The translations under genes and the position numbers were made by a program. Below are positions 3,702 through 28,331 of a stretch of 32,000 bases of DNA, piece after piece; position 1 is the first letter of the stretch; every line of letters starts with the position of its first letter. The notes beneath the pieces are model-generated. The model ran no database searches and had not been told where the DNA came from. It saw only the letters and a list, made by a program, of their open reading frames with translations. Source of the stretch: Trichodesmium erythraeum IMS101 (GTDB lineage: Bacteria; Cyanobacteriota; Cyanobacteriia; Cyanobacteriales; Microcoleaceae). The stretch is from contig NC_008312.1 of NCBI RefSeq assembly GCF_000014265.1, positions 6,360,001 to 6,392,000 on the forward strand, read 5' to 3'.

Positions 3702-3767
3702 CTAAATTTAAATTAACTAATATTTGTATTTGAGTAATTTCATTCAAACTACCCTAGATGCTATGGC

Positions 3768-4736
3768 TTAATATTGATTTTTTTCTAAATCTGCGAAATA
3801 ACCATTTTTCCACAGATAAAAAGGACTAATTAAACTATTAATATATAACTCTAATTCACAAGCTGCTACTAGATCTGTTCCTAACTTTAAATTATATTTA
3901 AGTAAATGACAGATAATTTTCCGAGTATCATTAGCCATATAAGCCAATAAAACTAATTGTTTTAACCAAGACTTAACCCCTAACATTCGAGTTACATAAC
4001 GACTCAAACCAATACCACAGAAAAAACTAATTAAATAATCTTTTTCCAATCTATTTTTAGGAATTTTGTGAGTTACCTCCATGCTCGGATTATACCAAAT
4101 TTCCCAACCTGCTTGTTGAATATAACCAATAGTTTCTGTATCCTCACCTGTTAACATTGAACCTGGTTTTCTACCACTCAAAATACAGTGCTTTGGAACA
4201 CTTTCTAACCAAGCTTTCTTCCGAATTACTAATCCTGCGGACGGAGGTATTACTTTTGATTTAGGTTTATATAGTAATGGTTTACCCCCCCTTTCAGTAA
4301 TAGCAAAAAATGGTTGAATTCGATTAAAATTAGGAGGTAATTTTCCCTCAAAATCTCCATGTATTTGACTAGCATAAGCACCTGCTTTGGGATATTTTTG
4401 AGCAAACTCATAAGCTGCTGCAACCCAATTTTCTGCAGGAATATTATCATCATCTAGAAAACCAATTAAAGGAGAAATTGCTACTTGAACAGCCTTTTTT
4501 CTAGCAAAACCTGCTCCTTGTTTCTCCTCAAAAAAATATTTTAATCTATTTTCTTGATGCCAGTTTTTTTGATATTCTCTAATGACTTGTTCTGTATTAT
4601 CTTGGCTGTTATTGTCTACAACAATTACTTCCCACGATAATTTCTCTGTATTGATTTGAGAATTTAGTTTTTCTAGAACTAATGGTAATTTTTCTGCGCC
4701 ATTGTAAGTAGGAATTGCAATAGTAAAATCAATCAT
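3768..4736 (-). CDS. family-2 glycosyltransferase (resembles cyanobacterial HpsE-type polysaccharide GTs)
   Basis: 322-aa ORF with FTIAIPTYNGAEKLPLVLEKL, VIVVDNNSQDNT and GFLDDDNIP motifs (GT-A/GT2). It is the first gene of the minus-strand operon. Confidence 0.8.
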   Translation of the reverse strand: MIDFTIAIPTYNGAEKLPLVLEKLNSQINTEKLSWEVIVVDNNSQDNTEQVIREYQKNWHQENRLKYFFEEKQGAGFARKKAVQVAISPLIGFLDDDNIPAENWVAAAYEFAQKYPKAGAYASQIHGDFEGKLPPNFNRIQPFFAITERGGKPLLYKPKSKVIPPSAGLVIRKKAWLESVPKHCILSGRKPGSMLTGEDTETIGYIQQAGWEIWYNPSMEVTHKIPKNRLEKDYLISFFCGIGLSRYVTRMLGVKSWLKQLVLLAYMANDTRKIICHLLKYNLKLGTDLVAACELELYINSLISPFYLWKNGYFADLEKNQY

Positions 4737-8674: not shown

Positions 8675-8712
8675 AGTTTATCTATTTTATCTAGTTGAAC
8701 ATTGTAAGTCTT

Positions 8713-8733
8713 CAGCTATTAGCTATTAGTTAT
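8713..8733. repeat. heptamer tandem repeat CAGCTAT-TAGCTAT-TAGTTAT (CAGYTAT family)
   Basis: Three consecutive 7-mers read directly from the sequence, about 40 bp upstream of the htpG start codon. Confidence 0.85.
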
Positions 8734-9161
8734 TAATTTTTCATCATACCAAAAGGGAATTATCCTTCAAGGAGTGGAGTATAATGAAATTGGACATTTG
8801 ATTACCTTAGTAAGTTATTACATTCGATTATTTGGTGGCTATTTCCAGGTAATTCCATAAGGGAAATGCTAATAGCTAAAAGCTTACCTCAATACTATTT
8901 TATGATTGTGATTTATGGAGTGTTTTTTTTAAACAGGGATTGTACCAAATATCTGATTCGGATTTCACTACCTAGGAAACTATACTATAATAGGTAGTGG
9001 TTTGAAATAACTAAATATTTTTATAAGTATTTAAATTAATTAATTTCATATCTACAGGACCTAAACAAAGACACTAAATATATTTACGGCAAATAGAGCA
9101 ATACCTAGCTATTTTTTTTGTGCGATCGCGCTCTATTGAGCAAAAACTTTTCCTAAGCATT

Positions 9162-9175
9162 TAGCTATCAGCTAT
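9162..9175. repeat. heptamer repeat TAGCTAT-CAGCTAT (CAGYTAT family)
   Basis: Two 7-mers read directly, adjacent to a HIP1 site (9122-9129) inside an 8-bp inverted repeat AATAGAGC/GCTCTATT. Confidence 0.7.
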
Positions 9176-10380
9176 CATACCCAGAGTTATTTTATTCTAA
9201 TTTATGACTCGTTGTGCATTAACAAAAATATGTTTTTTATAAATAAAATAGATGAATCAATTTATCAAAGATAGTAAAACCTTAATTTGATTATAGAATG
9301 AAACTTGAGAATAATACTGTACTTTTATAGTAATCTTTAATTGGGTATGATTAAGTAATAAAACTTTGCTCTCAAATCAAGTCTAAAACTACAAAAATAT
9401 ATGTGTTAATCACAACCATAAGTAACTAGTTTTTTGAGAAATTTAATAGGTAATTTTTATTAAATTCTTGTTATTTTAAAAAAAGTAATTTATCTTTAAT
9501 ATTTAGTTCTAAAAATAAAATTATCACGGAATCAAATGAGGTCGAATTAAATGATAACTTAATTAGATTTTATATCTTTTTACTAATAGTGTGATTACGA
9601 TTTATGATGGGCTAGGACGGGATTTACTGGGGAAAGCTAAATTTATTTTAGAATCTATTGAAGTAATTGATAGCAGTCGAAGCAAAGATTATGATTTAAT
9701 GATTTAAAAACCATTTAGGAAAGATTATATCTTATCCTTATAGCATAGCTATGACTGAAGACAAAAATTTATTAGTGCTATTGATGGTGGAATGAGTATT
9801 ATCAAGTAAGTTTTATATTTAAGGTTAGTAGTAATATTATTAATATTTAGTTATATAGAAGAAAAGAAACTGGGGATATAAAAGTAAAAATAGGTGCTCA
9901 AAAGGAGATAATCCCAAAATACTAGATTTAGAACAATTTCTTTGAATTTGTCCACATTTTAGGGACGCATTTATAGAATGTTTCTCAAAAAGAAACAGCA
10001 CCCTTTCATTTTCTCCTGAATTAAATAAAGCTGCCACATAGAAAATTAATGGGATTATTAATTATTATAGTTTTCCGAGTAAGAATGAAACATTTTTGTA
10101 GCCAAAAATATTTTACAGCAACAAAACCTCGTCTCAATTTAAACCAGAAAGACTATATTTTTAGTTCCTTAGATGAGATTGTTTAATGATACTTAATCAT
10201 CAATTATCAATATTCTGCACTGAATTCAAAACTATACTTACTATTAAAAGGGCTTATACTCTATTAGTATTTGAAAGTGCTGCTATTAGAAAAAAACTAT
10301 TATAAACACTTATTATTAGAAGTTAGTTATAATAAATTGAAAAAGGTTGTTAGGTGGTAACCTTAATGAAGTTAGTTTAA

Positions 10381-10394
10381 CTGATAGCTGATAA
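10381..10394. repeat. heptamer repeat CTGATAG-CTGATAA (reverse orientation of the CAGYTAT family)
   Basis: Read directly. The reverse complement is a cyclic permutation of CAGCTAT. Confidence 0.7.
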
Positions 10395-10582
10395 ACAAAG
10401 ACAAAATAAGACTTCAATTTATAACATAAAAATTAGTAAAAATTTGTAGCTTGGTTAAATATTTATACTAAACGAATTCTCTTTAATTTATCTTGATGAG
10501 GAGTCGAATTATCAGAGAAATATTAAGTATAAATACTGACTGAATTGTTAACCCCTATTGACCACTATAATTTTATTTTAAG

Positions 10583-10645
10583 TTTTGATTTTTGAGTTTT
10601 GATTTTTGAGTTTTGATTTTTGAGTTTTGACTTTTAAATTTTGAC
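10583..10645. repeat. tandem array of nine TTTTGAN heptamers (three perfect 14-mers TTTTGATTTTTGAG, then degenerate units)
   Basis: Units start at 10583, 10590, 10597, 10604, 10611, 10618, 10625, 10632 and 10639: ttttgat ttttgag ttttgat ttttgag ttttgat ttttgag ttttgac ttttaaa ttttgac. Confidence 0.9.
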
Positions 10646-10745
10646 TTGTATTTTAATACTATATTTTGTCGTGCTTAATTGAGGTGATATGGAGATTTGG
10701 TATAATACAAAACCGACAACAATGGTTATGAGTAAGTCCTGTAAC

Positions 10746-10786
10746 AAAAAAAACCACCAAAACAAGATATAAATCTCATCTGGTGG
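10746..10786 (-). terminator. Rho-independent terminator of nifZ-nifT
   Basis: On the minus strand, about 40 nt after the nifT stop, CCACCA (revcomp of 10781-10786) pairs with TGGTGG (revcomp of 10754-10759) across a 21-nt loop that can pair further (AGAT/ATCT). A run of 8 T follows (A-run 10746-10753 on the plus strand). Confidence 0.65.
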
Positions 10787-10824
10787 TCAAAAAATAAGGA
10801 GTAACCATGGAAAAAAAGAAAATT

Positions 10825-11294: not shown

Positions 11295-11365
11295 TTAGTT
11301 ACCTCGCTGATACTGATAAATTTACTATTTTTTCTACAATTTTTAATTGACACTAGATTAAGCTA

Positions 11366-11400
11366 AAGTCAGAAGGTGCGAAGTCAGAAGGCGCGAAGTT
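11366..11400. repeat. 15-bp tandem direct repeat AAGTCAGAAGG(T/C)GCG, two copies plus a partial third
   Basis: 11366-11380 and 11381-11395 differ at one base, and AAGTT at 11396-11400 starts a third unit. This is the GC-richest patch of the spacer, 72-106 bp upstream of the nifZ start. Confidence 0.85.
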
Positions 11401-11581
11401 AAATTCCCAACTACGTTCCTTCCTTAAGAGGCACGAGAATGTTTTAACTGCCCTAGCTACTGCTATATTATCTGCATCATCTGCAGCCGTTATCATAATT
11501 TTTTTTACATAAAAAAGTAACATCTCATTCTGAATTATTACATATTCATGTTTGGAAAAAAAGTAGCGATCGCTGCTATTT

Positions 11582-11602
11582 TAGTTATCAGTTATCAGTT
11601 AA
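11582..11602. repeat. heptamer repeat TAGTTAT-CAGTTAT-CAGTTAA (CAGYTAT family)
   Basis: Read directly. It sits immediately 3' of a HIP1 site (11566-11573). Confidence 0.85.
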
Positions 11603-12686
11603 TACTGTCTGCTGCTTTATCAAATTAGTACAAAACGTCACCTTTGCTCACTGAATGTTTAATTTTTGCTTCTTTTGAGGCCAATAGGCCTGATCATCCA
11701 TAGGCATTGACGGTCTAGCCGAGAGTACCTTTTACTTTAATACTTGCCTTTAAATCTCAAGATATTAATAAGGGACACCTTCGACAATTATAAATTCTCA
11801 GATTTTATAGCAAATATTAAGGGTGAGCGCAGCTATAGCAAGTATTGGAAAATGGGAAAAACCATTCAGCCAAGAGAGTTTTTTGCCTTTGGTTAATTTT
11901 AAAAATGATCAGCTTAGTTGAAATCATTTCAAAATTGTTTTAATAGTACAGTAAAAACATTGTTGTAATGGTATTGCAAAAACTTACCATAACCATTCTC
12001 TATGTTCAGTCTTTTTAGCTTGAGTAATAAACTGTTTTTGTAGCGAGGGAGTTAACAGACTTCTTCTCTACTAACTTGTGTTTCTGACAGAACGCTAGAG
12101 TCTCATTCCAGACAATACGAACCAAACCATGAGCGGGCTTTGTATTCTCAGTATTTTTACTCTATTGTTGCATAGATATAATGCTTAAATATAGGGACTA
12201 ATAATGTGAGTTTTTAACTCAAATTTAGGGTAACTTATTGTATTCAAATAAAATCAACTAAAAAGTAGCCTGATACGCAGACGAAACAATAGAGAGCTAA
12301 TTTTTTTTGTAAAAATTCCTCTAAGTTTACGGTCATGCCGAACTGCAGCATTCGATAAACTTAACCCCCAGTGATCAAAATATCTGTTATTCTCTGCGTG
12401 TTAAGCCATCAGAGTTTTTTTGCTTATGGTATTGTAGTTAGAGTTTTGTTAGGCATAGATTTCATGTATATGTGAAGGCAAGTTGCTTGGTGGAGTCTCC
12501 TTTTTCAGCTATAGTAGTTGCTAAGGTGCTTAGGATATTCTCGTCACTGCTCTAATTTAATCTGTAACTGCCAAAAGATTTTGATGATTTACAAGATGGG
12601 ATAAAATTTTTCTGGCATCAAGGGTTATAAGAGTAATAATAGTTACTATATTATATAGTATAGTGTATAATTATTTTTTGATTAAT

Positions 12687-12887: not shown

Positions 12888-13631
12888 CCTTAAGTTTTAA
12901 ATTAAAGGTAATAGAGCAAGAAAATAAATCTGTATCTATTACCAGTAGGTATTTTTTATTGATATACTCCCGAGGTTACGCTGACGCGACTACCCGGGTT
13001 CATTCATCCAAGGAAACCCTGAGAACTTTTTTAACTAATTCTGATTCTGATAATGCTTCTCCTTGAATTGAGGTATAATAATTGTCTTACTATTTTGATC
13101 GGGCTTATTGAAGTTATCCATAGTAGTTTGTAGTCTTTGGATAACATTTGATTAAACCTTAGAGTCTACTGACTTATGCTCACAAAATTACTTTTTAGTC
13201 TGTGTTAGGTTTGCTAGTTGAAAAGTATCTCACACAATATAACCATTGATTATGTTTGGATGCTGATCCTTTTGTATGATTATTGGTTGATCATTGTTAT
13301 CTTTTTTTCTAGCATCCTGTATTTGTATTCAAAATTCAGGGATATTCTGATAAATTGAATCTACTGGCACTATTGAAATATGAAAAGGAGAAGTGTTTAC
13401 TGGTTTTAGCCTTCTTTCAAACTAGTATAATGTTTTTGCTAAAAGGTAATTGTATTAATTAATAGCAAATTATAACTTTTGACTTTTTTTTGTTTGAGCT
13501 CGTCCTATATTTCAGTAGCATTTTAGAATAGACTATGATGTCAAGATTGGTATTCTATACTTGACATCAATTTTCATTTTGATGCAGAATTACAAATTAC
13601 AGTACAGAATTTCCGGTCGCAGGCGTAAAAA

Positions 13632-13910
13632 TTAATAGTTGTATTTAGGAAAAACTTCAGTGTTCCAACATCTTTCTAACCAGTCTACTAATTCTGCCTG
13701 AGGAGCAAGAAATTGCTTAATAGTGCTTTGGAGCAGAATAGCATCGGTGCAGTTGTTGACTTCTACTAATAAATCACCATTGTGAGTACACCAACTATTA
13801 ATCCTTAGCTCTTGTAAGCGATGGTGAATAAACCAGCGGTCTATTTGAGAAAGATTCACGATTTTAGTCAGATATTTGGCATGAGGGTTAAAATTATGAC
13901 TATTAAACAT
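13632..13910 (-). CDS. small hypothetical protein translationally coupled to nifP
   Basis: 92-aa ORF whose ATG (13908-13910) overlaps the nifP stop (13903-13905) in the sequence ATGTTTAA. The composition is non-repetitive (W/H/C-containing). No recognisable domain by eye. Confidence 0.55.
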
Positions 13911-14769
13911 TATTATTTTTCCTTGTCTCGCCTATAAGAGTTTGTAATTTTTCTTCAAGTTGCTGAATTTTCTCAACTAAAGCACGAGTTGCGGTAGCTT
14001 CAGTATCTGGGAATTTTCCATGATCGAGAACTTCAGTCCGTTCGCTAGATTTTGATACGACTCTACCAGGTATACCAACAACGGTGCAGTCAGAAGGAAC
14101 ATGACGCAATACAATGGAACCAGCACCGATACGAACGTTATTACCAATATTGATATTTCCTAATACTTTGGCACCAGCACCAACTACAACATTTGTACCA
14201 ATAGTAGGATGGCGTTTACCAATTTCTTTTCCTGTACCACCAAGAGTGACACCCTGATAAATTAATGAGTAATCTCCAACAATTGCTGTTTCACCAATAA
14301 CCACTCCCATACCATGATCTATAAATACTCCCTGTCCAATTTGTGCTCCTGGGTGAATTTCTATTCCTGTGAAGAATCGTCCGAAATGAGAAATCAATCT
14401 TGGAATTAAAGGTATTTTGTGATAGTGCAATTTATGAGCAAGACGGTACAATAATAAAGCGTGCAAACCTGGATAGCAACATAAGACTTCTATCCAGTTC
14501 CGTGCTGCTGGGTCTCGCTCGAAAATTATCTGAAAATCTGTTAAAATTGTCTCTATTTCAGGAAATATAAAATATTTGTACCAAAATCTATGAAAACAAG
14601 AAGAGGAAGAAAGCTCTCTATTAGATTCTGATATTAGATTTTCTTGAGAAACTTCAGTCTCTACCGTTGGTTTGTTTTGAGACCTCAAGTTACCTTGGTA
14701 TTTTTGCAAGGTAGAATTGTGAGTTGTATTAGGTAAGGTGCGGATATTGTCAGTCAGTAAGGTGGTCAT
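13903..14769 (-). CDS. nifP: serine O-acetyltransferase (nif-associated CysE, NifP-type)
   Basis: 288-aa ORF with [56 protein letters not shown] and hexapeptide repeats ([44 protein letters not shown]). It diverges from nifB, as nifP does in other cyanobacterial nif clusters. About 85 aa of low-complexity N-terminal extension precede the CysE core. Confidence 0.85.
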
Positions 14770-14771
14770 TT

Positions 14772-14806
14772 CATTTATCAGTTATCAGTGGTCAGTTATC
14801 GGTATC
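14772..14806. repeat. heptamer array CATTTAT-CAGTTAT-CAGTGGT-CAGTTAT-CGGTATC (CAGYTAT family)
   Basis: Five phased 7-mers begin 3 nt upstream of the nifP start codon (14769), so they lie inside the nifP 5' leader. Confidence 0.85.
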
Positions 14807-14896
14807 TGCAATAATAGGGAGGTTTGAGATGTTATTTCTTGCTCATGAATCAAATAAAGGATTTCGTATTTAACAAGAATATTTGCTTTTTAATGT

Positions 14897-15173
14897 TTAT
14901 ATCAAGTCCATGGAAAACTACTGAGAAATATTTATTGCTCAGTGTTTATTAGATTTATTAGGTTTGTACTCAAAGCTTTTAAATCTTGATGGGAAAGGTA
15001 TTACAGATATGTTTTAAATATATTTTGGGGTATATGTGCTAGTATTTTTTGTGGTATGTACAAGTATTTATTAAACGATGTACTAGCATTTTTGTACTCA
15101 AGCTTAATACTTCTATTTCAGGAGGTTGCGAGGATTTAAGTAGAGTTTTCTCCTAAACTTAAACTTGTACTCA
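14897..15173 (-). promoter_or_regulatory. nifP upstream regulatory module, mirror copy of the nifB module
   Basis: Read on the minus strand it contains, in order, TGAGTACA (15166-15173), TGAGTACA (15093-15100), TATACCCCAAAA (15023-15034), TGAGTACA (14965-14972), TAATAAACAC (14942-14951) and an extended -10-like TGATATAA (14897-14904). These have the same order and spacing as upstream of nifB. Confidence 0.6.
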
Positions 15174-15547
15174 ACTTTAGTTTAACTCATAACTCTAGTA
15201 AAAATATGGAAAAAAATCTTAAAATTATCTGCTTAATTCTGAAAAAACTGCTAAGTTAATTACAGAAAGTAAAAACTTGTAGTTGAGGTTTTATAAGGAT
15301 AAAATAAGTAAGAGTTGGGCAATAGCTTAAAAATTATATGGTTTGGCGATATGAGACAGGACAGAAAAAGGAGAGCTTGGCCTCAGCTATGAGCTAAATA
15401 TGCAGGAGCTATATATATTGTTATTGGGTAAGTCCCGGGGTTTAGTTGTTAATTTAGAATATTTTGAGATATTGTTTGTTCTCAACAGTAGCCAAAAAAA
15501 GATATATCGTATACAGTAATAAAAGATTGAGTAAAATAAGTAGTGTA

Positions 15548-15825
15548 TGAGTACAGAAGTGTAGAGAAAGAAAGGGTAGTAAAAAGAGAGCAAAATAACT
15601 AATATATATGACTTATAGCATGAGTACATACACTACTGTACCATTACCCCATAAATACATATACCCCACTTAAAAAATACAAGTACCTATACCCCAAAAA
15701 AAAAATTTAGATACCTTGAGATAATTGGAATCACTGAATTAGAAGCATCTGAGTACAAAATTAATTATCATAATAAACACTAACCACGATTTTTCAAAAG
15801 GTAAGGCTCAAACCCGGTGATATAA
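15548..15825 (+). promoter_or_regulatory. nifB upstream regulatory module (repeated TGAGTACA boxes plus an extended -10-like TGATATAA)
   Basis: TGAGTACA at 15548-15555, 15621-15628 and 15750-15757. TATACCCCAAAA at 15688-15699, TAATAAACAC at 15771-15780, TGATATAA at 15818-15825 (138 nt before the nifB ATG). Each anchor mirrors its nifP-side partner about coordinate 15361 to within 1 bp. Confidence 0.6.
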
Positions 15826-15962
15826 GAAGTATAACACTATAACGCCGGACACCTAATTCACTGATAGAACACTGCCAATGTTCAAGTCAATAGAAAAAGT
15901 GTATCGACGCGAGTAATCCGTCACCCACGGCGATAGCTAGTATAATAAGAGTGGAAACCTAG

Positions 15963-17432
15963 ATGTTACAGCCAACAGAAGTATCTTCCCAACCAACAGT
16001 AAACAGCTTCGCAAACATGATAGCAACTCCAGAAAAACAACCTGGTGATTGCGCGTCAAAGGGTTGCGGAAGCAACGAACAAGAAGTTGCCTCCAGTATT
16101 CAAGAGCGCATTGCTAATCATCCTTGTTATAGTCAAGAAGCGCATCACCACTATGCAAGGATGCACGCTCCAGTTGCACCAGCTTGCAACATTCAATGTA
16201 ATTTCTGTAACCGGAAATACGACTGTGCCAATGAAAGTCGTCCCGGTGTAGTCAGTGAACTGCTAACTCCTGAAGAAGCAGCTCACAAAGCTCTAGTAAT
16301 TGCTGGAAAAATTCCGCAAATGACAGTGATGGGTATTGCTGGCCCTGGCGACCCATTAGCGAACCCAGAAAAAACATTTCGTACTTTTGAGCTTGTAGCT
16401 GAGAAAGCTCCAGATATCAAGCTTTGCTTGTCAACCAATGGTCTAGCTTTACCTGATCATATAGATCGGATTAAAGCATTAAATATTGACCACGTTACTA
16501 TAACAATTAATATGGTTGACCCTGAAATCGGGGTAAAGATTTATCCTTGGGTTCACTACAAACGGAAGCGCTATAGAGGAATTGAGGGAGTCAAAATTCT
16601 GCATCAAAAGCAAATGGAAGCTTTAGACTTGCTCAGAGAAGCTGATGTTCTCTGCAAAGTTAACTCAGTGATGATTCCTGGTATTAATGACAAACACCTA
16701 GAAGAAGTTAATAGGGTTGTTCGCTCGAAGGGTGCATTCATTCATAACATTATGCCTCTAATTTCTTCACCAGAACATGGTACTTACTTCGGTTTAAATG
16801 GTCAACGTGGCCCAACTACTGAAGAACTAAAAGAATTACAAGACAAATGTGATGTTGGTGGTATGAACATGATGCGTCACTGTCGTCAATGTCGTGCAGA
16901 TGCAGTTGGTCTTTTAGGTGAAGACCGTAGTAAGGAATTCACAAAAGAAGCGATCATGGAAATGACTCCAGAGTATGATCTACAAAAGCGCAAAGAATTT
17001 CATGCTGGCATTGAAGGTTTCCGCAGTAAACTAGTAAAGGCTAAGGCTTCAGGTCAAACTACTGAAAAAGTTGCCGAAGCTGGTCCGCCCATACTACTGG
17101 CAGTAGCAAGTAAGGGTAACGGATTAGTTAATCAGCACTTTGGTCATGCTAAAGAGTTTATGATCTATGAAGTAGATGGTGTGAAAGCTAGATTTATTGC
17201 TCACCGGAAAGTTGACCACTATTGTCTAGGTGGTTATGGTGAAGAAGGAAGTCTGGAGAATATCATCAAGGCAATTTCTGATTGTAAAGCTGTTTTTGTT
17301 TCTAAAATTGGTGAGAGTCCAAAGGAAAAGGTACGCAATGCAGGACTAAAGGTGGTTGAAACTTACGATGTAATTGAAACAGTTGCTTTAGATTTCTATA
17401 AGCAATTCATCGGACAACTACAAGTAGCATAG
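15963..17432 (+). CDS. nifB: FeMo-cofactor biosynthesis radical-SAM protein NifB (with C-terminal NifX-like domain)
   Basis: 489-aa ORF with [44 protein letters not shown] (CxxxCxxC radical-SAM motif in the NifB context) and a C-terminal [27 protein letters not shown] NifX/NafY-like domain. The start is uncertain: ATG 15963 or the in-frame ATG at 16017. Confidence 0.93.
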
Positions 17433-17497
17433 GTAATGAGTTAAACTATTACTAGCTAATGTATTTTCTGCAATTCTTGCGTTTCCCAATGCTTTTA

Positions 17498-17614
17498 ATA
17501 TCAAGTCCGGTAATGTTGTTAGTGTATAAAATCAGGTGGTAACAATAGGAATTATGCATAAGTGCCTTTTGCATTTGTGCCACCAAAGTCTAATTATTTC
17601 ACCGGACATGATAT
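17498..17614. repeat. about 117-nt imperfect long hairpin / palindromic element in the nifB-nifS spacer
   Basis: ATATCAAGTCCGGT (17498-17511) pairs with ACCGGACATGATAT (17601-17614) at 13 of 14 positions. Inner complementary blocks are GGTGG (17535-17539) with CCACC (17580-17584), and ATGCA (17554-17558) with TGCAT (17570-17574). Confidence 0.6.
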
Positions 17615-17942
17615 AACAAGTTGATTTCTTGAATAGATATATTCAAAAATAGTCAAAGAATAAGACTAAGCTGGGAAATTATTGGCTTTAGTGGTTTAAA
17701 CCCTACTTGTAAAGATTGCTGTAGCAATTTTTAGCTTCAATCTCCAAATTTATAAAAGCTAGTAGAGTTAGTCAGAAAGCGATAATATCAGAAGTTACGC
17801 ACCTCAAGAAGAAACCAAGTTTATTGCCTTGATAGAAATTTCATCAATAAAATAGGTTTTTGCGTAGTTTATAAATATTTGACTACTGTTTTATCTTTAC
17901 TAGTTCTTACTTACAACCATCACCTCAAATTTTTAGTCAGCT

Positions 17943-19145
17943 ATGCAACAAACTATTTATCTAGACAACAACGCTACCACTAAAGTTGATGAGGCAGTGT
18001 TAGAGGAAATGCTGCCTTACCTGAGTCAGTTTTATGGTAATCCCTCTAGTATGCACACTTTTGGCGGAAAAGTTGGTAAGGCTACGAGAAAAGCGCGATC
18101 GCAAGTAGCAGCTTTACTCAACGCCGAAGATACAGAAATTATTTTTACCAGTTGTGGTACTGAGGGTGATAATGCTGCTATTCGAGCTGCTCTTACTGCT
18201 CAACCTAATAAACGGCATATTATTACTACTCAAGTAGAACACCCAGCAGTTTTGAGTCTCTGTAAGTATTTGGAGAAGCAGGGGTATACAGTTACTTATC
18301 TATCAGTAGATAGCCAGGGAATGATAGATTTAACTGAACTGGAAGCTGCTATTACAGGTAATACTGCTCTAGTTTCAGTTATGTATGCCAATAATGAAAC
18401 AGGGGTAGTTTTCCCCATAGAGAAAATTGGGCAGATAGCTAAAGAATATGGTGCGCTGTTCCATGTTGATGGGGTACAAGCAGTAGGAAAAGTGCCTTTA
18501 GATATGAAAAATAGCACTATAGATATGTTAGCTTTGTCTGGTCATAAGTTGCATGCACCTAAGGGTATTGCTGCTTTGTATGTGCGCCGCGGTACTCGCT
18601 TCCGTCCGTTATTAATTGGGGGACATCAGGAACGAGGTCGCCGTGCGGGGACTGAAAATGTACCTGGTATTATTGCTCTGGGTAAAGCCTGTGAGTTGGC
18701 AAAGGAGCATTTGGCACATATTGACAAGGAACGGGAACTGCGCGATTTGTTAGAAAATGGTATTTTGAATACTATTCCTGATTGTGCTGTTAATGGTCAT
18801 CTTATTCAAAGGTTGCCTAATACTACTAATATTGGTTTCAAGTATATTGAGGGAGAAGCAATATTGCTGCATTTGAGCCATTATGGTATCTGTGCTTCTT
18901 CAGGTTCGGCTTGCACTTCTGGATCTCTTGAGCCTTCACACGTTTTGCGGGCAATGGGTCTGCCGTATACAGTTTTACATGGTTCAATTCGTTTTTCTCT
19001 ATCACGTTATACAACTCGCCAAGAAGTTGAGGAAGTACTGGCGGTGATGCCGAGCATAGCAGAACGTTTGCGTGCTTTATCTCCCTTTAAGAACGATCAA
19101 GCTGATTGGTTGCAAGAGCGACAACAAGCAACTGTATCCTCCTAA
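17943..19145 (+). CDS. nifS: cysteine desulfurase NifS
   Basis: 400-aa ORF MQQTIYLDNNATTKVD..., SGHKLHAPKG (PLP lysine), and the active-site loop SSGSACTSGSLEPSHVL. Positioned between nifB and nifU. Confidence 0.93.
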   Translation: MQQTIYLDNNATTKVDEAVLEEMLPYLSQFYGNPSSMHTFGGKVGKATRKARSQVAALLNAEDTEIIFTSCGTEGDNAAIRAALTAQPNKRHIITTQVEHPAVLSLCKYLEKQGYTVTYLSVDSQGMIDLTELEAAITGNTALVSVMYANNETGVVFPIEKIGQIAKEYGALFHVDGVQAVGKVPLDMKNSTIDMLALSGHKLHAPKGIAALYVRRGTRFRPLLIGGHQERGRRAGTENVPGIIALGKACELAKEHLAHIDKERELRDLLENGILNTIPDCAVNGHLIQRLPNTTNIGFKYIEGEAILLHLSHYGICASSGSACTSGSLEPSHVLRAMGLPYTVLHGSIRFSLSRYTTRQEVEEVLAVMPSIAERLRALSPFKNDQADWLQERQQATVSS

Positions 19146-19320
19146 GATTTATCCTTTTTTAAGGATTGCTACACTTGATGTTGACACTACACTTTGTAGT
19201 AAAAGTAACAGAAAAGCTTGGTTGATTAAGTAACAATAATTGTAGAGGTAAAAAAGGGGTGTAAATCACGCTATAAACTCACAAAATTGTATTAAATTCA
19301 ACAAAAAAAATATTTCCTAG

Positions 19321-19356
19321 CCTAGAATATAAGAATATAAGAATATAATTTCTAGG
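19321..19356. repeat. three tandem octamers GAATATAA clamped by the inverted ends CCTAGAA / TTCTAGG
   Basis: cctaGAATATAAGAATATAAGAATATAAtttctagg read directly. Octamers are at 19325, 19333 and 19341, with terminal 7-bp inverted repeats at 19321-19327 and 19350-19356. Confidence 0.85.
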
Positions 19357-19582
19357 AGTAGTAAGTAATTTTGATGCCAATCATTTAAAAGTTATAAAAT
19401 TTTAGGAAAAAATAAGGTAAAAAGGGGTTGCTTGATTCTAAAAAATGTGTAATACTAATAATATCAAGTTTAACCCACTTCTTAAAATTAATAAGTTACT
19501 ACTCTACTAACTGGGTATTAAACTTCAAGAAAAAGCAGAATTTTTCATCAGTAAAATTAGGGTGTTCTAAACAATAAAAGCT

Positions 19583-20458
19583 ATGTGGGAATATACTGAA
19601 AAGGTAATGGATTTGTTCTATAACCCCCAAAACCAAGGAACTATTACAGACAAAAAAGAGGGGGAAAAGATAGTTAGTGGTGAAGTAGGAAGTATAGCCT
19701 GTGGAGATGCTTTAAGTCTACACCTCAAAGTAAATGAAGCCTCCGGTGAAATATTAGATGCCAAATTTCAAACCTTTGGCTGTGCAAGTGCGATAGCTTC
19801 ATCTTCTGCCCTAACAGCAATGCTCAAAGGCAAAACCATAGACGAAGCCATGAATATTAAAAACCAGGATATTGCCGGATACCTGGGAGGGCTGCCAGAA
19901 GAAAAAATGCACTGTTCAGTCATGGGAGAGGAAGCATTAGAAGCGGCAATATTTAAGTACAAAGGTATTGAAGTAGAAGTTCACGAAGAAGACGACGAAG
20001 GATCATTAGTTTGTAGTTGTTTTGCGATAACAGAAAACAAGATTAAGCGAGTTATTTTGGAAAACAATCTCAAAACAGCGGAAGAAGTAACAAACTATGT
20101 CAAAGCTGGTGGTGGTTGTGGTTCTTGTCTGGCAGATATTGATGATCTCGTCGCATCGGTTTATGAAGCGCCAGACACTACAACGCAACAAATTCCTACA
20201 ACTACTAAACCAGCAACCAACCTGACAAACTTGCAAAAAATTACATTAATTCAGCAAGTATTACAACAAGAGGTGAGGCCAGTTCTCGCCGAAGATGGAG
20301 GAGATGTTGAGTTATTCGATGTAGATGGCGATCGCGTGCTAGTCAAACTCAAAGGAGCTTGTGGTTCTTGCAGTAATGTGCTAGTAACGCTAAAAGGAGC
20401 GATCGAAGCTACATTAAAAGAACGAGTTAGTGAAAGTCTTGTAGTAGAAGCGGTATAA
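19583..20458 (+). CDS. nifU: Fe-S cluster scaffold NifU (three-domain)
   Basis: 291-aa ORF MWEYTEKVMDLFYNPQNQG.... It has an IscU-like N-domain (GSIACGDA, FQTFGCASAIASSS, HCSVMG), a central CSCF...GGGCGSC [2Fe-2S] domain and a C-terminal NifU domain (GACGSC). Confidence 0.93.
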   Translation: MWEYTEKVMDLFYNPQNQGTITDKKEGEKIVSGEVGSIACGDALSLHLKVNEASGEILDAKFQTFGCASAIASSSALTAMLKGKTIDEAMNIKNQDIAGYLGGLPEEKMHCSVMGEEALEAAIFKYKGIEVEVHEEDDEGSLVCSCFAITENKIKRVILENNLKTAEEVTNYVKAGGGCGSCLADIDDLVASVYEAPDTTTQQIPTTTKPATNLTNLQKITLIQQVLQQEVRPVLAEDGGDVELFDVDGDRVLVKLKGACGSCSNVLVTLKGAIEATLKERVSESLVVEAV

Positions 20459-20726
20459 AATAGTTACAAATATCAGTTATCAAGGTGTCTTCAATCAAAT
20501 TTAAAAAATTAACTGTTGAGTGAAAGCCACAAAAAACCAATAAAGCTAATACATTAATCACAATTTTATATATGCAGGTAATACCTGATCAAGCTTTAGG
20601 GCGAGCGCCTCCGGGCACTCTAATGTTGCTGCTAGATACACGCTGTTCTTAAGTGAACAAAATTACGAATGTTGTGCTGTAAAGTCAAAAGCCCTAGAAA
20701 CAGCAGCCACCAAACATAAAATCTAA

Positions 20727-21698
<972 letters not shown>

Positions 21699-25520: not shown

Positions 25521-28331
25521 ATGGCTATGATAACCCCAGGCAAAGTTGCCGAACTTTTAAATGAGCCAGGTTGCGAACACAACCATCAAAAAAATAACGG
25601 AGATAAAAAACAGAAAGGCTGCCAGCAACAAGCAGCACCCGGAGCTGCTCAAGGGGGTTGTGCCTTTGATGGTGCTAGTATTGCTCTAGTTCCAATTACA
25701 GATGCAGCTCACCTGGTTCACGGTCCTTTAGGTTGTTCTGGTAACTCCTGGGGAGCTCGTGGAAGTCTTTCCTCCAGTTCCCATCTATACAAAATGGGTT
25801 TCACCACTGATATGGGTGAAAATGACATTATTATGGGCGGAGAGAAAAAATTATTGAGGGCGATCGCTGAATTAAAAAAACGTTATCAACCTCCTGCTAT
25901 ATTTGTCTATGCCACCTGTGTTACTGCTTTAATTGGAGATGACCTAGAAACAGTTTGTAAAGTCGCTACTAAAAAATTAGAAATTCCGGTCATTCCCGTT
26001 AACTCTCCTGGTTTCATCGGTAGCAAAAATCTGGGTAACCGGGTTGGCGCAGAAGCATTATTAGACCATGTAGTAGGTACGGCAGAACCTGAATTTACTA
26101 CACCTTATGACATAAACCTAATTGGGGAATATAATATTGCTGGGGAAATGTGGGCAATGTTACCCCTGTTTGAAAAAGTTGGCATTCGGGTATTGTCAAA
26201 AATCACGGGAGATGCTACTTACAAAGAAGTTTGTTATGCCCACCGTGCCAAACTCAACGTTATGATCTGCTCTAAAGCTATGATCAATATGGCACGAAAA
26301 ATGGAGGAAGAATATGGCATTCCTTACATTGAAGAATCATTTTATGGTGTTGCTGATATTAATAACTGCCTCCGGAATATTGCTGCCAAAATTGGGGATG
26401 CTGGCCTGCAAGAACGGACAGAAAAACTGATCGCTGAAGAAACAACTATTCTTGAAGAAATATTAGAACCCTATCGCCAACGTCTAAAAGGTAAAAAAGT
26501 TGTACTCTACACAGGTGGGGTGAAAAGTTGGTCTATTATTTCGGCAGCTAAAGATTTAGAGATGGATGTGGTTGCTACTAGCACCAAGAAAAGTACAGAA
26601 GAGGATAAGGCTAAAATCAAAAAGTTGCTCGGTAAAGATGGTATTTTGCTAGAAAAAGGTAATGCCGAAATACTCTTAAAAGTAATTGCCGAGACTAAAG
26701 CTGATATGCTTATAGCAGGTGGTCGTAACCAGTATACTGCTCTCAAAGCCCGAATTCCCTTTTTACACATTAACCAAGAACGTCATCATCCCTACGCCGG
26801 ATATCATGGGATGATAGAAATGGCTAAAGAATTAGATGAAGCTCTCTATAGTCCGGTTTGGGAACAGGTGAGACAACCGGCACCTTGGTTAGAGGCATGT
26901 CAGTTAGATGATGTTTTGGCTGTTGAAACTTTACCAAGTTTAACTAATATTCCACCAACAACAGTCAATTTTCATAAACAATCATTATCCACAAATCCTC
27001 TGAAACTCAGTCAACCTTTGGGTGCGGCTTTAGCATACTTAGGAATTAATGGGATGATGCCAATGTTCCACGGTACTCAAGGTTGTACTGCTTTTGCTAA
27101 GGTATTATTGGTGAATCACTTCCAGGAAGCTATTCCCTTGTCTACTACTGCTATGAGTGAAGTGACAACTATTTTGGGAGGGGAGGATAACATTGATAAA
27201 GCGCTGCTGACTCAGCTTGAGAAGTCAAAACCAAAGGTAATTGGTTTGTTGACTACTGGTTTAACTGAAACCAGAGGGGATGACATGGAGCGTATTCTTA
27301 AGAAATTTAGGGAAGAGCATCCAGAATTAGATGGGTTCCCCATATTAAATGTTTCTAGTCCAGATTATAAGGGTTCTGCTCAGGACGGTTTTGCTACTAC
27401 AGTAGAATGTATAGTAGGTTATGATTATGGGGAGCCTATTCCCAAAGAAATTAAAAAACCTTTGATTACAATTTTAGCTGGTTCTTGTCTTGCTCCTGGA
27501 GATGTCCAGGAAATCAAGGATATTGTAGAAGATTTTGGGTTCATTCCAATAGTTGTACCGGACTTATCTCAGTCTTTGGACGGGCATTTAATTGATGATA
27601 TTTATAGTGCTACAAGCTCAGGTGGTACCACAATAGAGGATTTGCGTAATTTACGTCACTCATCTTTCACCTTTGCTATTGGGGAAAGTATGCGAAATGC
27701 AGCTATAATTTTGCAAGAAAAATTTGGTACTCAATATCAAGTGTTCTCTCGGTTGACTGGTTTGGGTGCTGTAGATAGTTTCATGTTAAAATTGTCTCAG
27801 CTAATTGTATCTCGAATTGATCCTCATCTTGACAAAGGCTGTGAAGTTCCTGAGAAATACCTACGCCAACGCCGTCAGTTACAGGATGCGATGTTGGATA
27901 CTCACTTCTATTTTGGGCATAAGCAAGTATCTATTGCCCTGGAACCAGATTTACTTTGGGCAACAAGTTGGTTTGTGCGAGAAATGGGGGGAGATATTCA
28001 TTCTGCTGTCACAACTACGCGATCGCCGTTACTTGAAAAATTACCTACGGAAAATGTGATAGTTGGGGACTTGGGAGATTTAGAAGAAGTGGCAGCAGGT
28101 TCGGATTTACTAATTACCAATTCTCGTGGTAAGATAATATCTGAGAAGTTAAATATTGATCTCTATCGGATGGGAATGCCAATTTACGATCGCCTTGGTA
28201 ATGGTCAACGTTGTTCTGTTGGTTACCGTGGTACAATGAATTTATTATTTGATATTGGTAATATTTTCCTAGAGCAAGAGGAATCAAAAATTCACACCAA
28301 TGATTATTCATTATTAAGTACTCAGGCATAA
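25521..28331 (+). CDS. nifEN: fused NifE-NifN FeMo-cofactor scaffold (single 936-aa polypeptide)
   Basis: The N-terminal ~456 aa are NifE-like (GGCAFDGASIALVPITDAAHLVHGPLGCSGNSW, ATCVTALIGDD, ...YSPVWEQVRQPAPW). From about aa 490 the sequence is NifN-like (NPLKLSQPLGAALAYLGINGMMPMFHGTQGCTAF, TTGLTETRGDD). The ~34-aa linker (nt 26889-26990) has no stop codon in frame. Confidence 0.9.
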   Translation: MAMITPGKVAELLNEPGCEHNHQKNNGDKKQKGCQQQAAPGAAQGGCAFDGASIALVPITDAAHLVHGPLGCSGNSWGARGSLSSSSHLYKMGFTTDMGENDIIMGGEKKLLRAIAELKKRYQPPAIFVYATCVTALIGDDLETVCKVATKKLEIPVIPVNSPGFIGSKNLGNRVGAEALLDHVVGTAEPEFTTPYDINLIGEYNIAGEMWAMLPLFEKVGIRVLSKITGDATYKEVCYAHRAKLNVMICSKAMINMARKMEEEYGIPYIEESFYGVADINNCLRNIAAKIGDAGLQERTEKLIAEETTILEEILEPYRQRLKGKKVVLYTGGVKSWSIISAAKDLEMDVVATSTKKSTEEDKAKIKKLLGKDGILLEKGNAEILLKVIAETKADMLIAGGRNQYTALKARIPFLHINQERHHPYAGYHGMIEMAKELDEALYSPVWEQVRQPAPWLEACQLDDVLAVETLPSLTNIPPTTVNFHKQSLSTNPLKLSQPLGAALAYLGINGMMPMFHGTQGCTAFAKVLLVNHFQEAIPLSTTAMSEVTTILGGEDNIDKALLTQLEKSKPKVIGLLTTGLTETRGDDMERILKKFREEHPELDGFPILNVSSPDYKGSAQDGFATTVECIVGYDYGEPIPKEIKKPLITILAGSCLAPGDVQEIKDIVEDFGFIPIVVPDLSQSLDGHLIDDIYSATSSGGTTIEDLRNLRHSSFTFAIGESMRNAAIILQEKFGTQYQVFSRLTGLGAVDSFMLKLSQLIVSRIDPHLDKGCEVPEKYLRQRRQLQDAMLDTHFYFGHKQVSIALEPDLLWATSWFVREMGGDIHSAVTTTRSPLLEKLPTENVIVGDLGDLEEVAAGSDLLITNSRGKIISEKLNIDLYRMGMPIYDRLGNGQRCSVGYRGTMNLLFDIGNIFLEQEESKIHTNDYSLLSTQA

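Follow-up and report, generated by a model that had tools for sequence, protein, structure and literature searches.

In Trichodesmium erythraeum IMS101, the spacer that separates the divergently transcribed genes nifP and nifB most probably (at a probability of about 0.85) carries two independent, complete cyanobacterial nif promoter modules placed back to back. Each module is about 290 bp long and points at its own gene, and both arms are the conserved promoter module of cyanobacterial nifB and nifP, a type of element already described in other cyanobacteria. Read toward the gene, the module runs from box 1A over 73 bp to box 1B, through motifs 2A and 2B in tandem to box 1C, and on to a TAAT/AATAAA box and an extended -10 element. 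The boxes 1A, 1B and 1C are each TGAGTACA, and 2A and 2B are tandem A/C-rich repeats of the form AAATAC..GTACC. [quoted passage not shown] The suggestion of the initial annotation that the boxes are plausible CnfR-type sites is thereby borne out.

Architecture of the nifP/nifB spacer

In the window, the whole 32-kb stretch of DNA analysed, the spacer occupies 14770-15962, a length of 1193 bp, with position 15366 midway between the two start codons. Its parts and the flanking genes are as follows.

13903-14769, minus strand: nifP, serine O-acetyltransferase, 288-aa reading with a Hexapep domain; exact match to ABG53140.1 (T. erythraeum IMS101)
14896-14904, minus strand: extended -10 of nifP (TGATATAAA); predicted start near 14889, leader of about 120 nt to the ATG at 14769
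14940-14960, minus strand: TAAT/AATAAA box (TAATAAATCTAATAAACACTG); 32-arm alignment and position
14965-14972, minus strand: box 1C, 128 bp past 1B; exact match and 32-arm alignment
15023-15049, minus strand: motif 2B (AAAAATACTAGCACATATACCCCAAAA); 32-arm alignment, position and enrichment
15055-15071, minus strand: motif 2A (ATAAATACTTGTACATA); 32-arm alignment, position and enrichment
15093-15100, minus strand: box 1B, 73 bp past 1A; exact match and 32-arm alignment
15166-15173, minus strand: box 1A; exact match and 32-arm alignment
15174-15547, no strand: variable centre of 374 bp, not mirrored
15548-15555, plus strand: box 1A (TGAGTACA), -285 to -278 from the predicted start; exact match and conserved block in the 32-arm alignment
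15621-15628, plus strand: box 1B (TGAGTACA), 73 bp past 1A; exact match and conserved block in the 32-arm alignment
15651-15667, plus strand: motif 2A (ATAAATACATATACCCC), consensus atAAATACt.gtACCc; conserved block in the 32-arm alignment
15673-15699, plus strand: motif 2B (AAAAATACAAGTACCTATACCCCAAAA), which includes the TATACCCCAAAA anchor; tandem direct repeat of 2A (repeat family D3)
15750-15757, plus strand: box 1C (TGAGTACA), 129 bp past 1B; exact match and 32-arm alignment
15762-15782, plus strand: TAAT/AATAAA box (TAATTATCATAATAAACACTA), -71 to -51, consensus TAAT.A...t.tAATAAat.cta; conserved in 32 of 32 aligned arms and including the TAATAAACAC anchor
15818-15826, plus strand: extended -10 of nifB (TGATATAAG); predicted start near 15833, leader of about 130 nt, no -35-like hexamer
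15963-17432, plus strand: nifB, with Radical_SAM and Nitro_FeMo-Co domains; exact match to ABG53141.1 (T. erythraeum IMS101)

The two arms mirror each other closely. Six anchor pairs had been described as symmetric to within 1 bp, and all six hold without a mismatch in position and strand, with coordinate sums of 30722 in four pairs and 30721 in two. TGAGTACA occurs at 7 sites in the window against 1.12 +/- 1.02 expected from dinucleotide-preserving shuffles (0 of 100 reach 7), and the spacer holds six of them, three on each strand; TAATAAACAC is found within the window at its two anchor sites only, and AAATACNNGNACC is enriched (7 sites against 2.1 expected, four of them inside the two arms). 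Comparison of the spacer with its own reverse complement, proposed with the initial annotation as a check, confirms collinear arms: global alignment of the nifB arm (15540-15962) with the reverse complement of the nifP arm (14770-15181) gives a score of 15 and 57% identity with every anchor in register, against -55 +/- 8.4 for shuffles (maximum -23; z about 8). A repeat search recovers 49-nt and 37-nt inverted pairs with 78% complementarity independently of the anchors. Measured from the predicted starts, the positions agree between the arms to 1 bp or less, with 1A at -285/-284, 1B at -212/-211, 2A at -182, 2B at -160, 1C at -83, the TAAT box at -71 and the extended -10 at -15. Beyond the 1A boxes the symmetry is lost: the 374-bp centre has dissimilar halves (local score 11 against 10.4 +/- 1.5 for shuffles).

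Both arms lie upstream of nifB or nifP, are oriented toward it, and contain the full set of parts. The three TGAGTACA boxes share one orientation in each arm and are spaced 73/129 bp on the nifB side and 73/128 bp on the nifP side, within the expected spacing of about 70-74 bp followed by about 115-129 bp. Between 1B and 1C, both arms carry 2A and 2B as ATAAATAC..TACCCC and AAAAATAC..GTACC..TACCCCAAAA, and these motifs align with conserved blocks of the 32 arms. The TATACCCCAAAA anchor of the initial annotation is redefined here as part of motif 2B.

The promoter elements proper are equally regular. TGATATAA lies 68 bp past 1C in both arms and has the form of an extended -10 (TGnTAnAA) without a -35. 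Of the 122 arms in which a box triplet could be scored, 121 have the same motif past 1C, at a mean distance of 67.7 +/- 1.4 bp (65-70 bp in 120 arms and 55 bp in one; it is absent from one), in agreement with its original reading as an extended -10. In the 32-arm alignment, the -45 to -25 region is neither TTGACA-like nor conserved. A sigma-70 consensus scan, which is blind to -35-less promoters, returned 7 sites against 6.0 expected and no -35/-10 pair that uses the -10 of either module.

Transcription is predicted to begin about 7 nt past the extended -10, and starts predicted in this way match those mapped in two other cyanobacteria. Counted from the predicted start, the first ATG in frame with nifP lies at +28 to +36 in most genomes, and 5'RACE in A. 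variabilis located the nifP start at -33/-34, that is, 33-34 nt ahead of the ATG (bioRxiv 10.1101/2025.04.01.646610). Likewise, the predicted nifB leaders measure about 295-303 nt in most Nostoc genomes, and dRNA-seq in Nodularia located the nifB start 296 nt upstream of the gene (PMC3610870). The nifB leader is also about 300 nt in A. variabilis, compared with the roughly 130 nt predicted in Trichodesmium.

Other promoter types and leader elements were searched for in the same region. As had been noted from the sequence, no GTA-N8-TAC (NtcA) box occurs anywhere in the spacer, and thus none centred near -41.5, as at NtcA-activated promoters. Proteobacterial NifA/sigma-54 promoters are similar in function only, in that a nif-specific activator works from sites 100-300 bp upstream of the start; they differ in that the Trichodesmium spacer has neither GG-N10-GC (-24/-12) nor TGT-N10-ACA on either strand of 14770-15962, and its promoters are of the extended -10 type. 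NifA upstream activator sites are often under face-of-helix constraints. A search of 13500-21000 against Rfam with E up to 1 gave a chance match inside nifP and nothing in the spacer. The nifB leader of the window is no more stable as RNA than its shuffles (z -1.49), and no covariation is seen within the close clade. RNAalifold on nifB leaders from Nostocales and others returned one long-range stem with only 3 compensated pairs.

Conservation and spacing across cyanobacteria

A profile HMM was built from 32 arms, the window's own two and 30 arms from 15 other genomes, across which the conserved blocks are defined; the alignment with other cyanobacterial spacers that had been proposed shows the boxes to be conserved. 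In the 32-kb window, nhmmer with this profile finds exactly two copies, each near full profile length (E 9e-53 on the minus strand and 1e-49 on the plus strand, for arms that are themselves among the 32 profile sequences). Of 80 cyanobacterial genomes, 79 have a module directed at nifB, and all 23 genomes with nifP within 5 kb upstream have an inverted one directed at nifP, consistent with the earlier view of a single regulatory design used twice, each copy facing its own gene. Of the 79 genomes with a nifB module, 56 show no inverted partner within up to 5 kb upstream of it. The compared loci leave out L. boryana.

Metagenomic sequences show the same association. Only 17 of 120 stretches with the bare three-box pattern have the full module, and 16 of these adjoin nifB or nifP, the 17th being a 1.4-kb contig too short to tell. 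The other 103 stretches resemble tandem repeats in unrelated DNA, and the bare three-box pattern was rejected as a specific marker. Across the sequences compared, the short contig aside, the module is associated exclusively with nifB and nifP.

Identity is 68-93% for orthologous arms but 57-61% for the arms within one genome, which makes the duplication old, and the claim of conserved boxes as opposed to a recent duplicate stands. In distant clades, nifB-nifB, nifP-nifP and nifB-nifP arm identities are nearly equal, and the sequence between the boxes is saturated (nifB-nifB 49-54%, nifB-nifP 47-52%), so that deep comparisons give no date for the duplication. Gene conversion or concerted evolution was considered and rejected: on a common alignment, same-genome arm identity is 45-58%, not above the identity between nifB and nifP arms of different genomes.

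Among the 122 arms, the spacings fall into discrete classes, 69-74 or 80-84 bp for 1A-1B (about 72 or about 83 bp) and 114-119 or 124-133 bp for 1B-1C (means 116 and 127.5 bp, with none at 120-123 bp). Within single genomes, the two arms pair these classes in all four possible ways. Since genomes elsewhere combine classes separated by roughly one helical turn, the 1-bp precision of the mirror in Trichodesmium is a feature of its lineage and no conserved requirement. The one-turn classes, together with the fixed distance from 1C to the -10, suggest that the boxes lie on one face of the DNA and may form a single wrapped or looped complex, an argument that draws on related sequences and hence on few independent events; two arms with an 80-bp 1A-1B spacing do not fit the helical phase.

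The centre between the modules is variable. In the six genomes closest to this one, the two 1A boxes are separated by about 253 to 863 bp, and the modules lie about 3 kb apart in some Nostocales. In the Trichodesmium/Dapis lineage, a block of 36 nt (15232-15267) just past the nifP module is fully invariant. One possible role for this 36-mer is that of a lineage-specific control site not described before, acting perhaps on nif expression by day or in diazocytes. A 17-codon ORF overlapping the block (ATG at 15206) lacks conservation in relatives and was rejected.

The further proposal that the module of about 290 bp works as one phased nucleoprotein complex, with the 36-nt block at 15232-15267 as a lineage-specific control site, is put forward tentatively and is unlikely on present weight. 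If the complex is indeed phased, DNA at this -35-less promoter would be wrapped or looped around an oligomer of the activator, an arrangement for which no earlier statement with regard to CnfR promoters was found in the literature.

Related nif promoters and alternative explanations

The closest counterpart is the nifB/nifP region of L. boryana, where, according to a 2016 study as cited in later papers (bioRxiv 10.1101/2025.04.01.646610, PMC5943405, bioRxiv 10.64898/2026.01.15.699626), divergent operons also start from one spacer with cis elements upstream of both, the motif set is the same (I-II correspond to 1B, IV-V to 2A and VI-VII to 2B), and both promoters are activated by CnfR. The two organisms differ in that L. 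boryana fixes only micro-oxically, whereas the marine Trichodesmium fixes aerobically by day. The nifB1, nifB2 and nifP promoters of A. variabilis ATCC 29413 (PMC4284476, PMC8510180, bioRxiv 10.1101/2025.04.01.646610) likewise have three TGAGTACA motifs (1A, 1B and 1C, also named CS1-3), 2A/2B between 1B and 1C, and an extended -10 without a -35, and they are activated by CnfR1 or CnfR2. In A. variabilis, nifP lies away from nifB, so that the modules are not back to back as they are in Trichodesmium, and Nostocales loci have unequal arm spacings (nifB 71/126 against nifP 74/117 or 84/119), unlike those found here. The A. variabilis nifB2/nifZ2T2 spacer also places divergent nif operons under CnfR control (PMC8510180), with one apparent CnfR binding region for both directions where the Trichodesmium spacer has two full modules.

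On this background, CnfR would bind the 2A/2B core of each Trichodesmium module, the TGAGTACA boxes would bind further CnfR or a partner protein, and the complex would bring RNA polymerase to the -35-less extended -10 promoter. In this reading the nifB module drives nifB-nifS-nifU-nifHDK-nifEN and the genes downstream, and the nifP module drives nifP and the genes behind it. With such recruitment at both modules, nifB and nifP should be switched on together. CnfR binding or activation of the element is known for L. boryana, A. variabilis and Nostoc 7120 only (bioRxiv 10.1101/2025.04.01.646610). No cnfR/patB gene lies in the 32-kb window; a patB ortholog is reported for T. erythraeum IMS101 in a review (PMC3655545).

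A possible, though less probable, variant keeps the modules as real nif promoters but has the TGAGTACA boxes read by another protein, a second regulator or an architectural factor, with CnfR contacting 2A/2B only. Boxes 1 and 2 are indeed different sequences with the GTAC core alone in common in the 32-arm alignment, and according to a later summary of L. boryana reporter assays, changes in 2A or 2B, and not in the TGAGTACA boxes, abolish CnfR activation, altering 1B having little effect (bioRxiv 10.1101/2025.04.01.646610). At A. variabilis nifP, expression falls when the stretch ahead of 1B that contains box 1A is included (same source). At nifB1 of that organism, 1A and 1B each give about half of the activity. 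Single motifs are reported in the literature to act differently, and at times oppositely, at nifB and nifP. Against a second reader, purified Nostoc CnfR binds DNA fragments with the conserved regions (bioRxiv 10.1101/2025.04.01.646610), and in Synechocystis 6803, which is no diazotroph, CnfR alone suffices to activate the nifB promoter of L. boryana, as reported in two sources (bioRxiv 10.1101/2025.04.01.646610, PMC5943405), so that basal activation needs no nif-specific second factor.

Two further explanations concern the mirror geometry. That the arms act as one unit, as a cruciform or stem from a long inverted repeat or as a shared bidirectional enhancer needing both halves, is very improbable: as single-stranded DNA, 14890-15832 does form a fold in which the conserved boxes of the two arms pair, with greater stability than its shuffles (-88.8 against -73.5 +/- 4.8 kcal/mol, z -3.15), but the arms are only 57-61% alike and 374 bp apart, the lone nifB modules, the variable centre and the distant modules of some Nostocales described above all count against a single unit, and one genome's arms combine the spacing classes in all four ways. 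Both arms also lie upstream of their own predicted starts, so no transcript should carry both. Least credible of all, with next to no probability, is an origin of the arms as terminal inverted repeats of a foldback or MITE-type mobile element, or as a recent inverted duplication. Its inverted-repeat geometry is outweighed by the presence of the same arms at the orthologous position and orientation across cyanobacterial orders (79 genomes), by same-genome arms far less alike than orthologous ones, and by the confinement of full metagenomic modules to the neighbourhood of nifB or nifP, save the one short contig. The two nif-facing copies that the profile gives in the window are not the many dispersed near-identical copies of such an element, no transposase gene was seen, and an informal look revealed no target-site duplication.

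Two independent promoter modules remain the preferred reading of the spacer. Little of this is new: for other cyanobacteria, the motif set, its connection with CnfR and its placement at nifB and nifP have already been published. The interest of the locus lies in the organism. Trichodesmium supplies a large share of the open ocean's new nitrogen and fixes in the light while producing oxygen, and to our knowledge the switching-on of its nif genes is poorly known. The locus supplies exact sites for footprinting, reporter and mutation work. Because both complete CnfR-type modules are kept box for box, nif transcription in Trichodesmium is very probably controlled by the oxygen-sensing activator that also acts in heterocystous cyanobacteria and in micro-oxic ones.

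Two inverted modules in the nifP–nifB spacer

The spacer between nifP and nifB (14770-15962) holds two inverted promoter modules, the nifB arm (+) and the nifP arm (-), each with three TGAGTACA boxes (1A, 1B and 1C) and A/C-rich repeats (2A and 2B) between 1B and 1C. The genes identified by protein identity are:

15963-17432, + strand, nifB, protein identical to ABG53141.1 of T. erythraeum IMS101
13903-14769, - strand, nifP, protein identical to ABG53140.1 of T. erythraeum IMS101
25521-28331, + strand, fused nifEN, protein identical to ABG53147.1 of T. erythraeum IMS101

The order 3′ of nifB is nifS, nifU, three ORFs taken as nifH, nifD and nifK by position alone, nifEN, nifX, DUF269, nifW, hesA and hesB, while nifP, an Asr1405-like gene, DUF2949 and nifZ lead away from nifB on the opposite strand. 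The nifEN gene is a single ORF of 936 aa that carries two nitrogenase component 1 domains, and a nifE-nifN fusion is also annotated in Trichodesmium, Dapis and Okeania. The nifB-nifS gap (17433-17942), the position of fdxN in many cyanobacteria, has no ORF of at least 60 aa, and two stretches near nifZ are nearly ORF-free, with one 65-aa ORF in 8675-10824 and none in 11295-12686, all in line with the published 40% non-coding share of the T. erythraeum genome (PMC4143802). Published work places nifB of T. erythraeum IMS101 directly beside the cysE/nifVZT region (PMC3655545); the ORF listing of the window has no nifV-sized ORF beside nifZ.

All six symmetric motif pairs of the initial annotation, here called anchors, are exact as listed, and their mirror symmetry holds, with left start plus right end equal to 30722 in four pairs and 30721 in two. 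The window contains seven copies of TGAGTACA (1.12 ± 1.02 in shuffles), six of them inside the 1193-bp spacer, three per strand. The nifB arm and the reverse-complemented nifP arm align collinearly at 57% identity with a global score of 15 (shuffles, -55 ± 8.4), and element positions counted from the TGATATAA-predicted starts differ by no more than 1 bp between the arms. Beyond the outermost TGAGTACA boxes there is no symmetry, and the halves of the 374-bp centre (15174-15547) are unrelated. The seventh TGAGTACA (13783-13790, +) lies inside the Asr1405-like ORF, where the module profile has no match; one stray copy is the number chance predicts (1.1 expected). Degenerate extra boxes occur at 15528-15535 (+, TGAGTAAA), 20 bp beyond the nifB-side 1A, and at 15182-15189 (-, TGAGTTAA), 16 bp beyond the nifP-side 1A and kept in the clade, and the Dapis loci L006 and L007 have an additional exact TGAGTACA ~250 bp upstream of nifB 1A in a duplicated segment.

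Conservation and box spacing across cyanobacteria

In nifB loci from 80 cyanobacterial species, taken with 5 kb of flank, a TGAGTACA triplet of the same spacing is found upstream of nifB in almost all, and its inverted counterpart upstream of nifP wherever nifP is near nifB. Alignment of both arms from 16 genomes gave the consensus below and a profile HMM.

Consensus elements of the module (arm alignment, 16 genomes)
1A: tTGAGTACA
1B: TGAGTACA.AaA
2A: atAAATACt.gtACCc
2B: AaAAATACtaG.ACC..TAcCCcAA
1C and A/T box: tTGAGTACAa...TAAT.A...t.tAATAAat.cta
Extended -10: cTGaTATAA

Given this shared architecture, the six anchors therefore correspond to 1A, 1B, 1C, the 3′ portion of 2B, a segment of the A/T box and the extended -10. 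The profile matches the window exactly twice (E = 9e-53 and 1e-49), and it finds a nifB-facing module in 79/80 genomes and a nifP-facing module in 23/23 genomes with nifP inside the 5-kb flank. Nostoc carneum, Tolypothrix tenuis and Calothrix anomala (L018, L051 and L063) have a nifB leader unlike the common type and a weak partial inverted module (E about 1e-5) at about 3450-3800 (-), 700-900 bp upstream of nifB, resembling the nifB2-nifZ2 arrangement of A. variabilis (PMC8510180).

In the 122 arms whose box triplet could be scored, the 1B-1C spacing is either 114-119 (mean 116.2, n=35) or 124-133 (mean 127.5, n=87), with no arm at 120-123, and the 1A-1B spacing is either 69-74 (n=116) or 80-84 (n=6). 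These classes lie about one helical turn apart, which fits boxes that need one face of the helix; the arms are, however, related by descent, and two arms with an 80-bp 1A-1B spacing misfit the one-face requirement. The 1B-1C classes pair per genome (nifB/nifP) as short/short in 8, long/short in 7, long/long in 6 and short/long in 2. As all four combinations occur, the 1-bp mirror precision therefore reflects the membership of both T. erythraeum arms in the long class and, judged by these spacings, belongs to the T. erythraeum lineage and is no general rule.

Predicted starts and leaders

The extended -10 proposed in the initial annotation recurs as TGnTAnAA 67.7 ± 1.4 bp (mode 68) past 1C in 121/122 arms. 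No -35-like hexamer is conserved among the aligned arms, and a sigma-70 scan paired no -35 with the module -10 elements. The predicted starts, about 15833 (+) and about 14889 (-), give leaders of about 130 nt for nifB and about 120 nt for nifP, the same as first estimated. Starts mapped in other species offer a check on the prediction: most Nostoc genomes have a predicted nifB leader of about 295-303 nt, and dRNA-seq placed the Nodularia spumigena nifB start 296 nt upstream (PMC3610870). Module architecture, conservation and start prediction are demonstrated in this analysis. An 8-nt duplication common to T. erythraeum and Trichodesmium MAG_R02 falls directly on the predicted nifB start (15829-15844, +; TATAACAC-TATAACGC compared with CTATAACGC in Dapis) and could move the start by 8 nt.

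The nifB leader (15836-15958, +) is strongly conserved, with a G+C above that of the spacer and invariant runs in the six-genome clade such as 15836-15853 and the 26-nt 15898-15923. Its first transcribed bases, TA(T/A)(A/C)CGCC, are common across cyanobacteria, and about 60-80 nt downstream GTGAGTGGAGGGATG is present in most Nostocales and degenerate in several others; RNAalifold pairs the two regions with just three compensated pairs, and on its own the window leader shows no unusual stability (z -1.49).

NifP is 288 aa in GenBank and 217 aa in RefSeq. The 288-aa reading is probably right, because the 71-codon extension (14557-14769, -) is open in six related genomes, its MTTLLT start is common to four of six relatives and metagenome contig L184, and most genomes have their first in-frame ATG 28-36 nt past the predicted start, although the substitutions within the extension are not biased toward third codon positions. 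In A. variabilis, 5′RACE placed the nifP start at -33/-34, which matches the predicted start, and nifP regulation requires sequence within the coding region (bioRxiv 10.1101/2025.04.01.646610). The nifP leader (14770-14848, -) carries a lineage-specific insertion in T. erythraeum, with the MTTLLT start codon at +119 compared with 41-42 nt past the predicted start in L008, L009 and L184. The extra ~77 nt includes short repeats of the GATAACTGA type; it also keeps, where the ancestral start lay, a vestigial ATG that soon runs into a stop codon. The nifP leaders of L005, L006 and L007 are longer as well (+113 to +143).

A 36-nt block, CTTAATTCTGAAAAAACTGCTAAGTTAATTACAGAA (15232-15267, +), 59 nt beyond the nifP-module 1A, is identical in T. 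erythraeum, Trichodesmium MAG_R02, three Dapis species and one metagenome contig, although the arms around it share no more than 75-93% identity. It has five mismatches in a Microcoleaceae MAG, is missing from the other 74 genomes, and has no nifB-side mirror copy, second window copy, Rfam hit or conserved ORF.

Origin of the arms and proposed CnfR activation

Orthologous arms share 68-93% identity within the Trichodesmium/Dapis/Microcoleaceae group, compared with 57-61% for the two arms of one genome, which excludes a recent inverted duplicate and upholds the earlier view that specific boxes are conserved. Between distant clades, same-type and cross-type identities converge at about 47-54%, and within-genome identity is not raised. 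Gene conversion has left no sign, and the duplication is too old to date. Nor are the arms a mobile foldback element, whose defining features were sought in the window and in metagenomes and not found. Searching metagenomes for the three boxes alone yielded 120 stretches, 17 with the whole module; 16 of these adjoin nifB or nifP, and the other lies on a contig of 1.4 kb, too short for its neighbours to be judged. The bare TGAGTACA triplet with module-like spacing occurs in more than 100 unrelated metagenome stretches (among L085-L204), none with the nif module and several with multiple tandem matches that suggest repeat arrays; this count is far above a rough, uncomputed chance estimate of a few matches.

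The nifB module lacks an inverted partner in the flank in 56/79 genomes, and the two 1A boxes stand about 253 to 863 bp apart in the six closest genomes and as much as ~3 kb apart in some Nostocales; the arms thus appear not to need each other. As single-stranded DNA they pair with modest excess stability (z -3.15), and a structural role for this pairing is unlikely given their 57-61% similarity, the 374-bp gap and the position of both arms upstream of the starts. The element is neither a NifA/sigma-54 nor an NtcA promoter: the defining features of both were sought in the spacer and not found, and there is no GTA-N8-TAC box, as previously noted.

The anchors match published motifs of CnfR-activated nifB and nifP promoters, as the suggestion of CnfR-type sites had anticipated. 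A. variabilis nifB1, nifB2 and nifP have three TGAGTACA boxes (1A/1B/1C or CS1-3), 2A/2B and an extended -10 without -35, and the same sources describe this motif set in the L. boryana nifB-nifP spacer (bioRxiv 10.1101/2025.04.01.646610, PMC8510180, PMC4284476). Both L. boryana promoters are CnfR-activated, also in Synechocystis 6803 (PMC5943405, bioRxiv 10.64898/2026.01.15.699626). Changes in 2A or 2B abolish activation in L. boryana and a change in 1B has little effect; loss of 1A, likewise of 1B, halves A. variabilis nifB1 expression, and Nostoc 7120 fragments carrying module regions bind purified CnfR (bioRxiv 10.1101/2025.04.01.646610). A patB (cnfR) ortholog is reported in T. erythraeum IMS101 (PMC3655545); cnfR is absent from the 32-kb window.

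In the scheme we propose as most likely, two separate CnfR-responsive promoters fire outward from the spacer. CnfR would bind mainly at the 2A/2B repeats (-182 to -134), and the TGAGTACA boxes near -285, -212 and -83 would be auxiliary sites. The A/T box occupies -71 to -51, and the extended -10 would serve RNA polymerase. We infer the protein steps from other species. The spacer modules are the Trichodesmium ortholog of the published regulatory element; the initial observation is sound and its interpretation right, and a specialist would not be surprised. Because no explicit description of the Trichodesmium instance was found in the literature searched, its coordinates may serve experiments.
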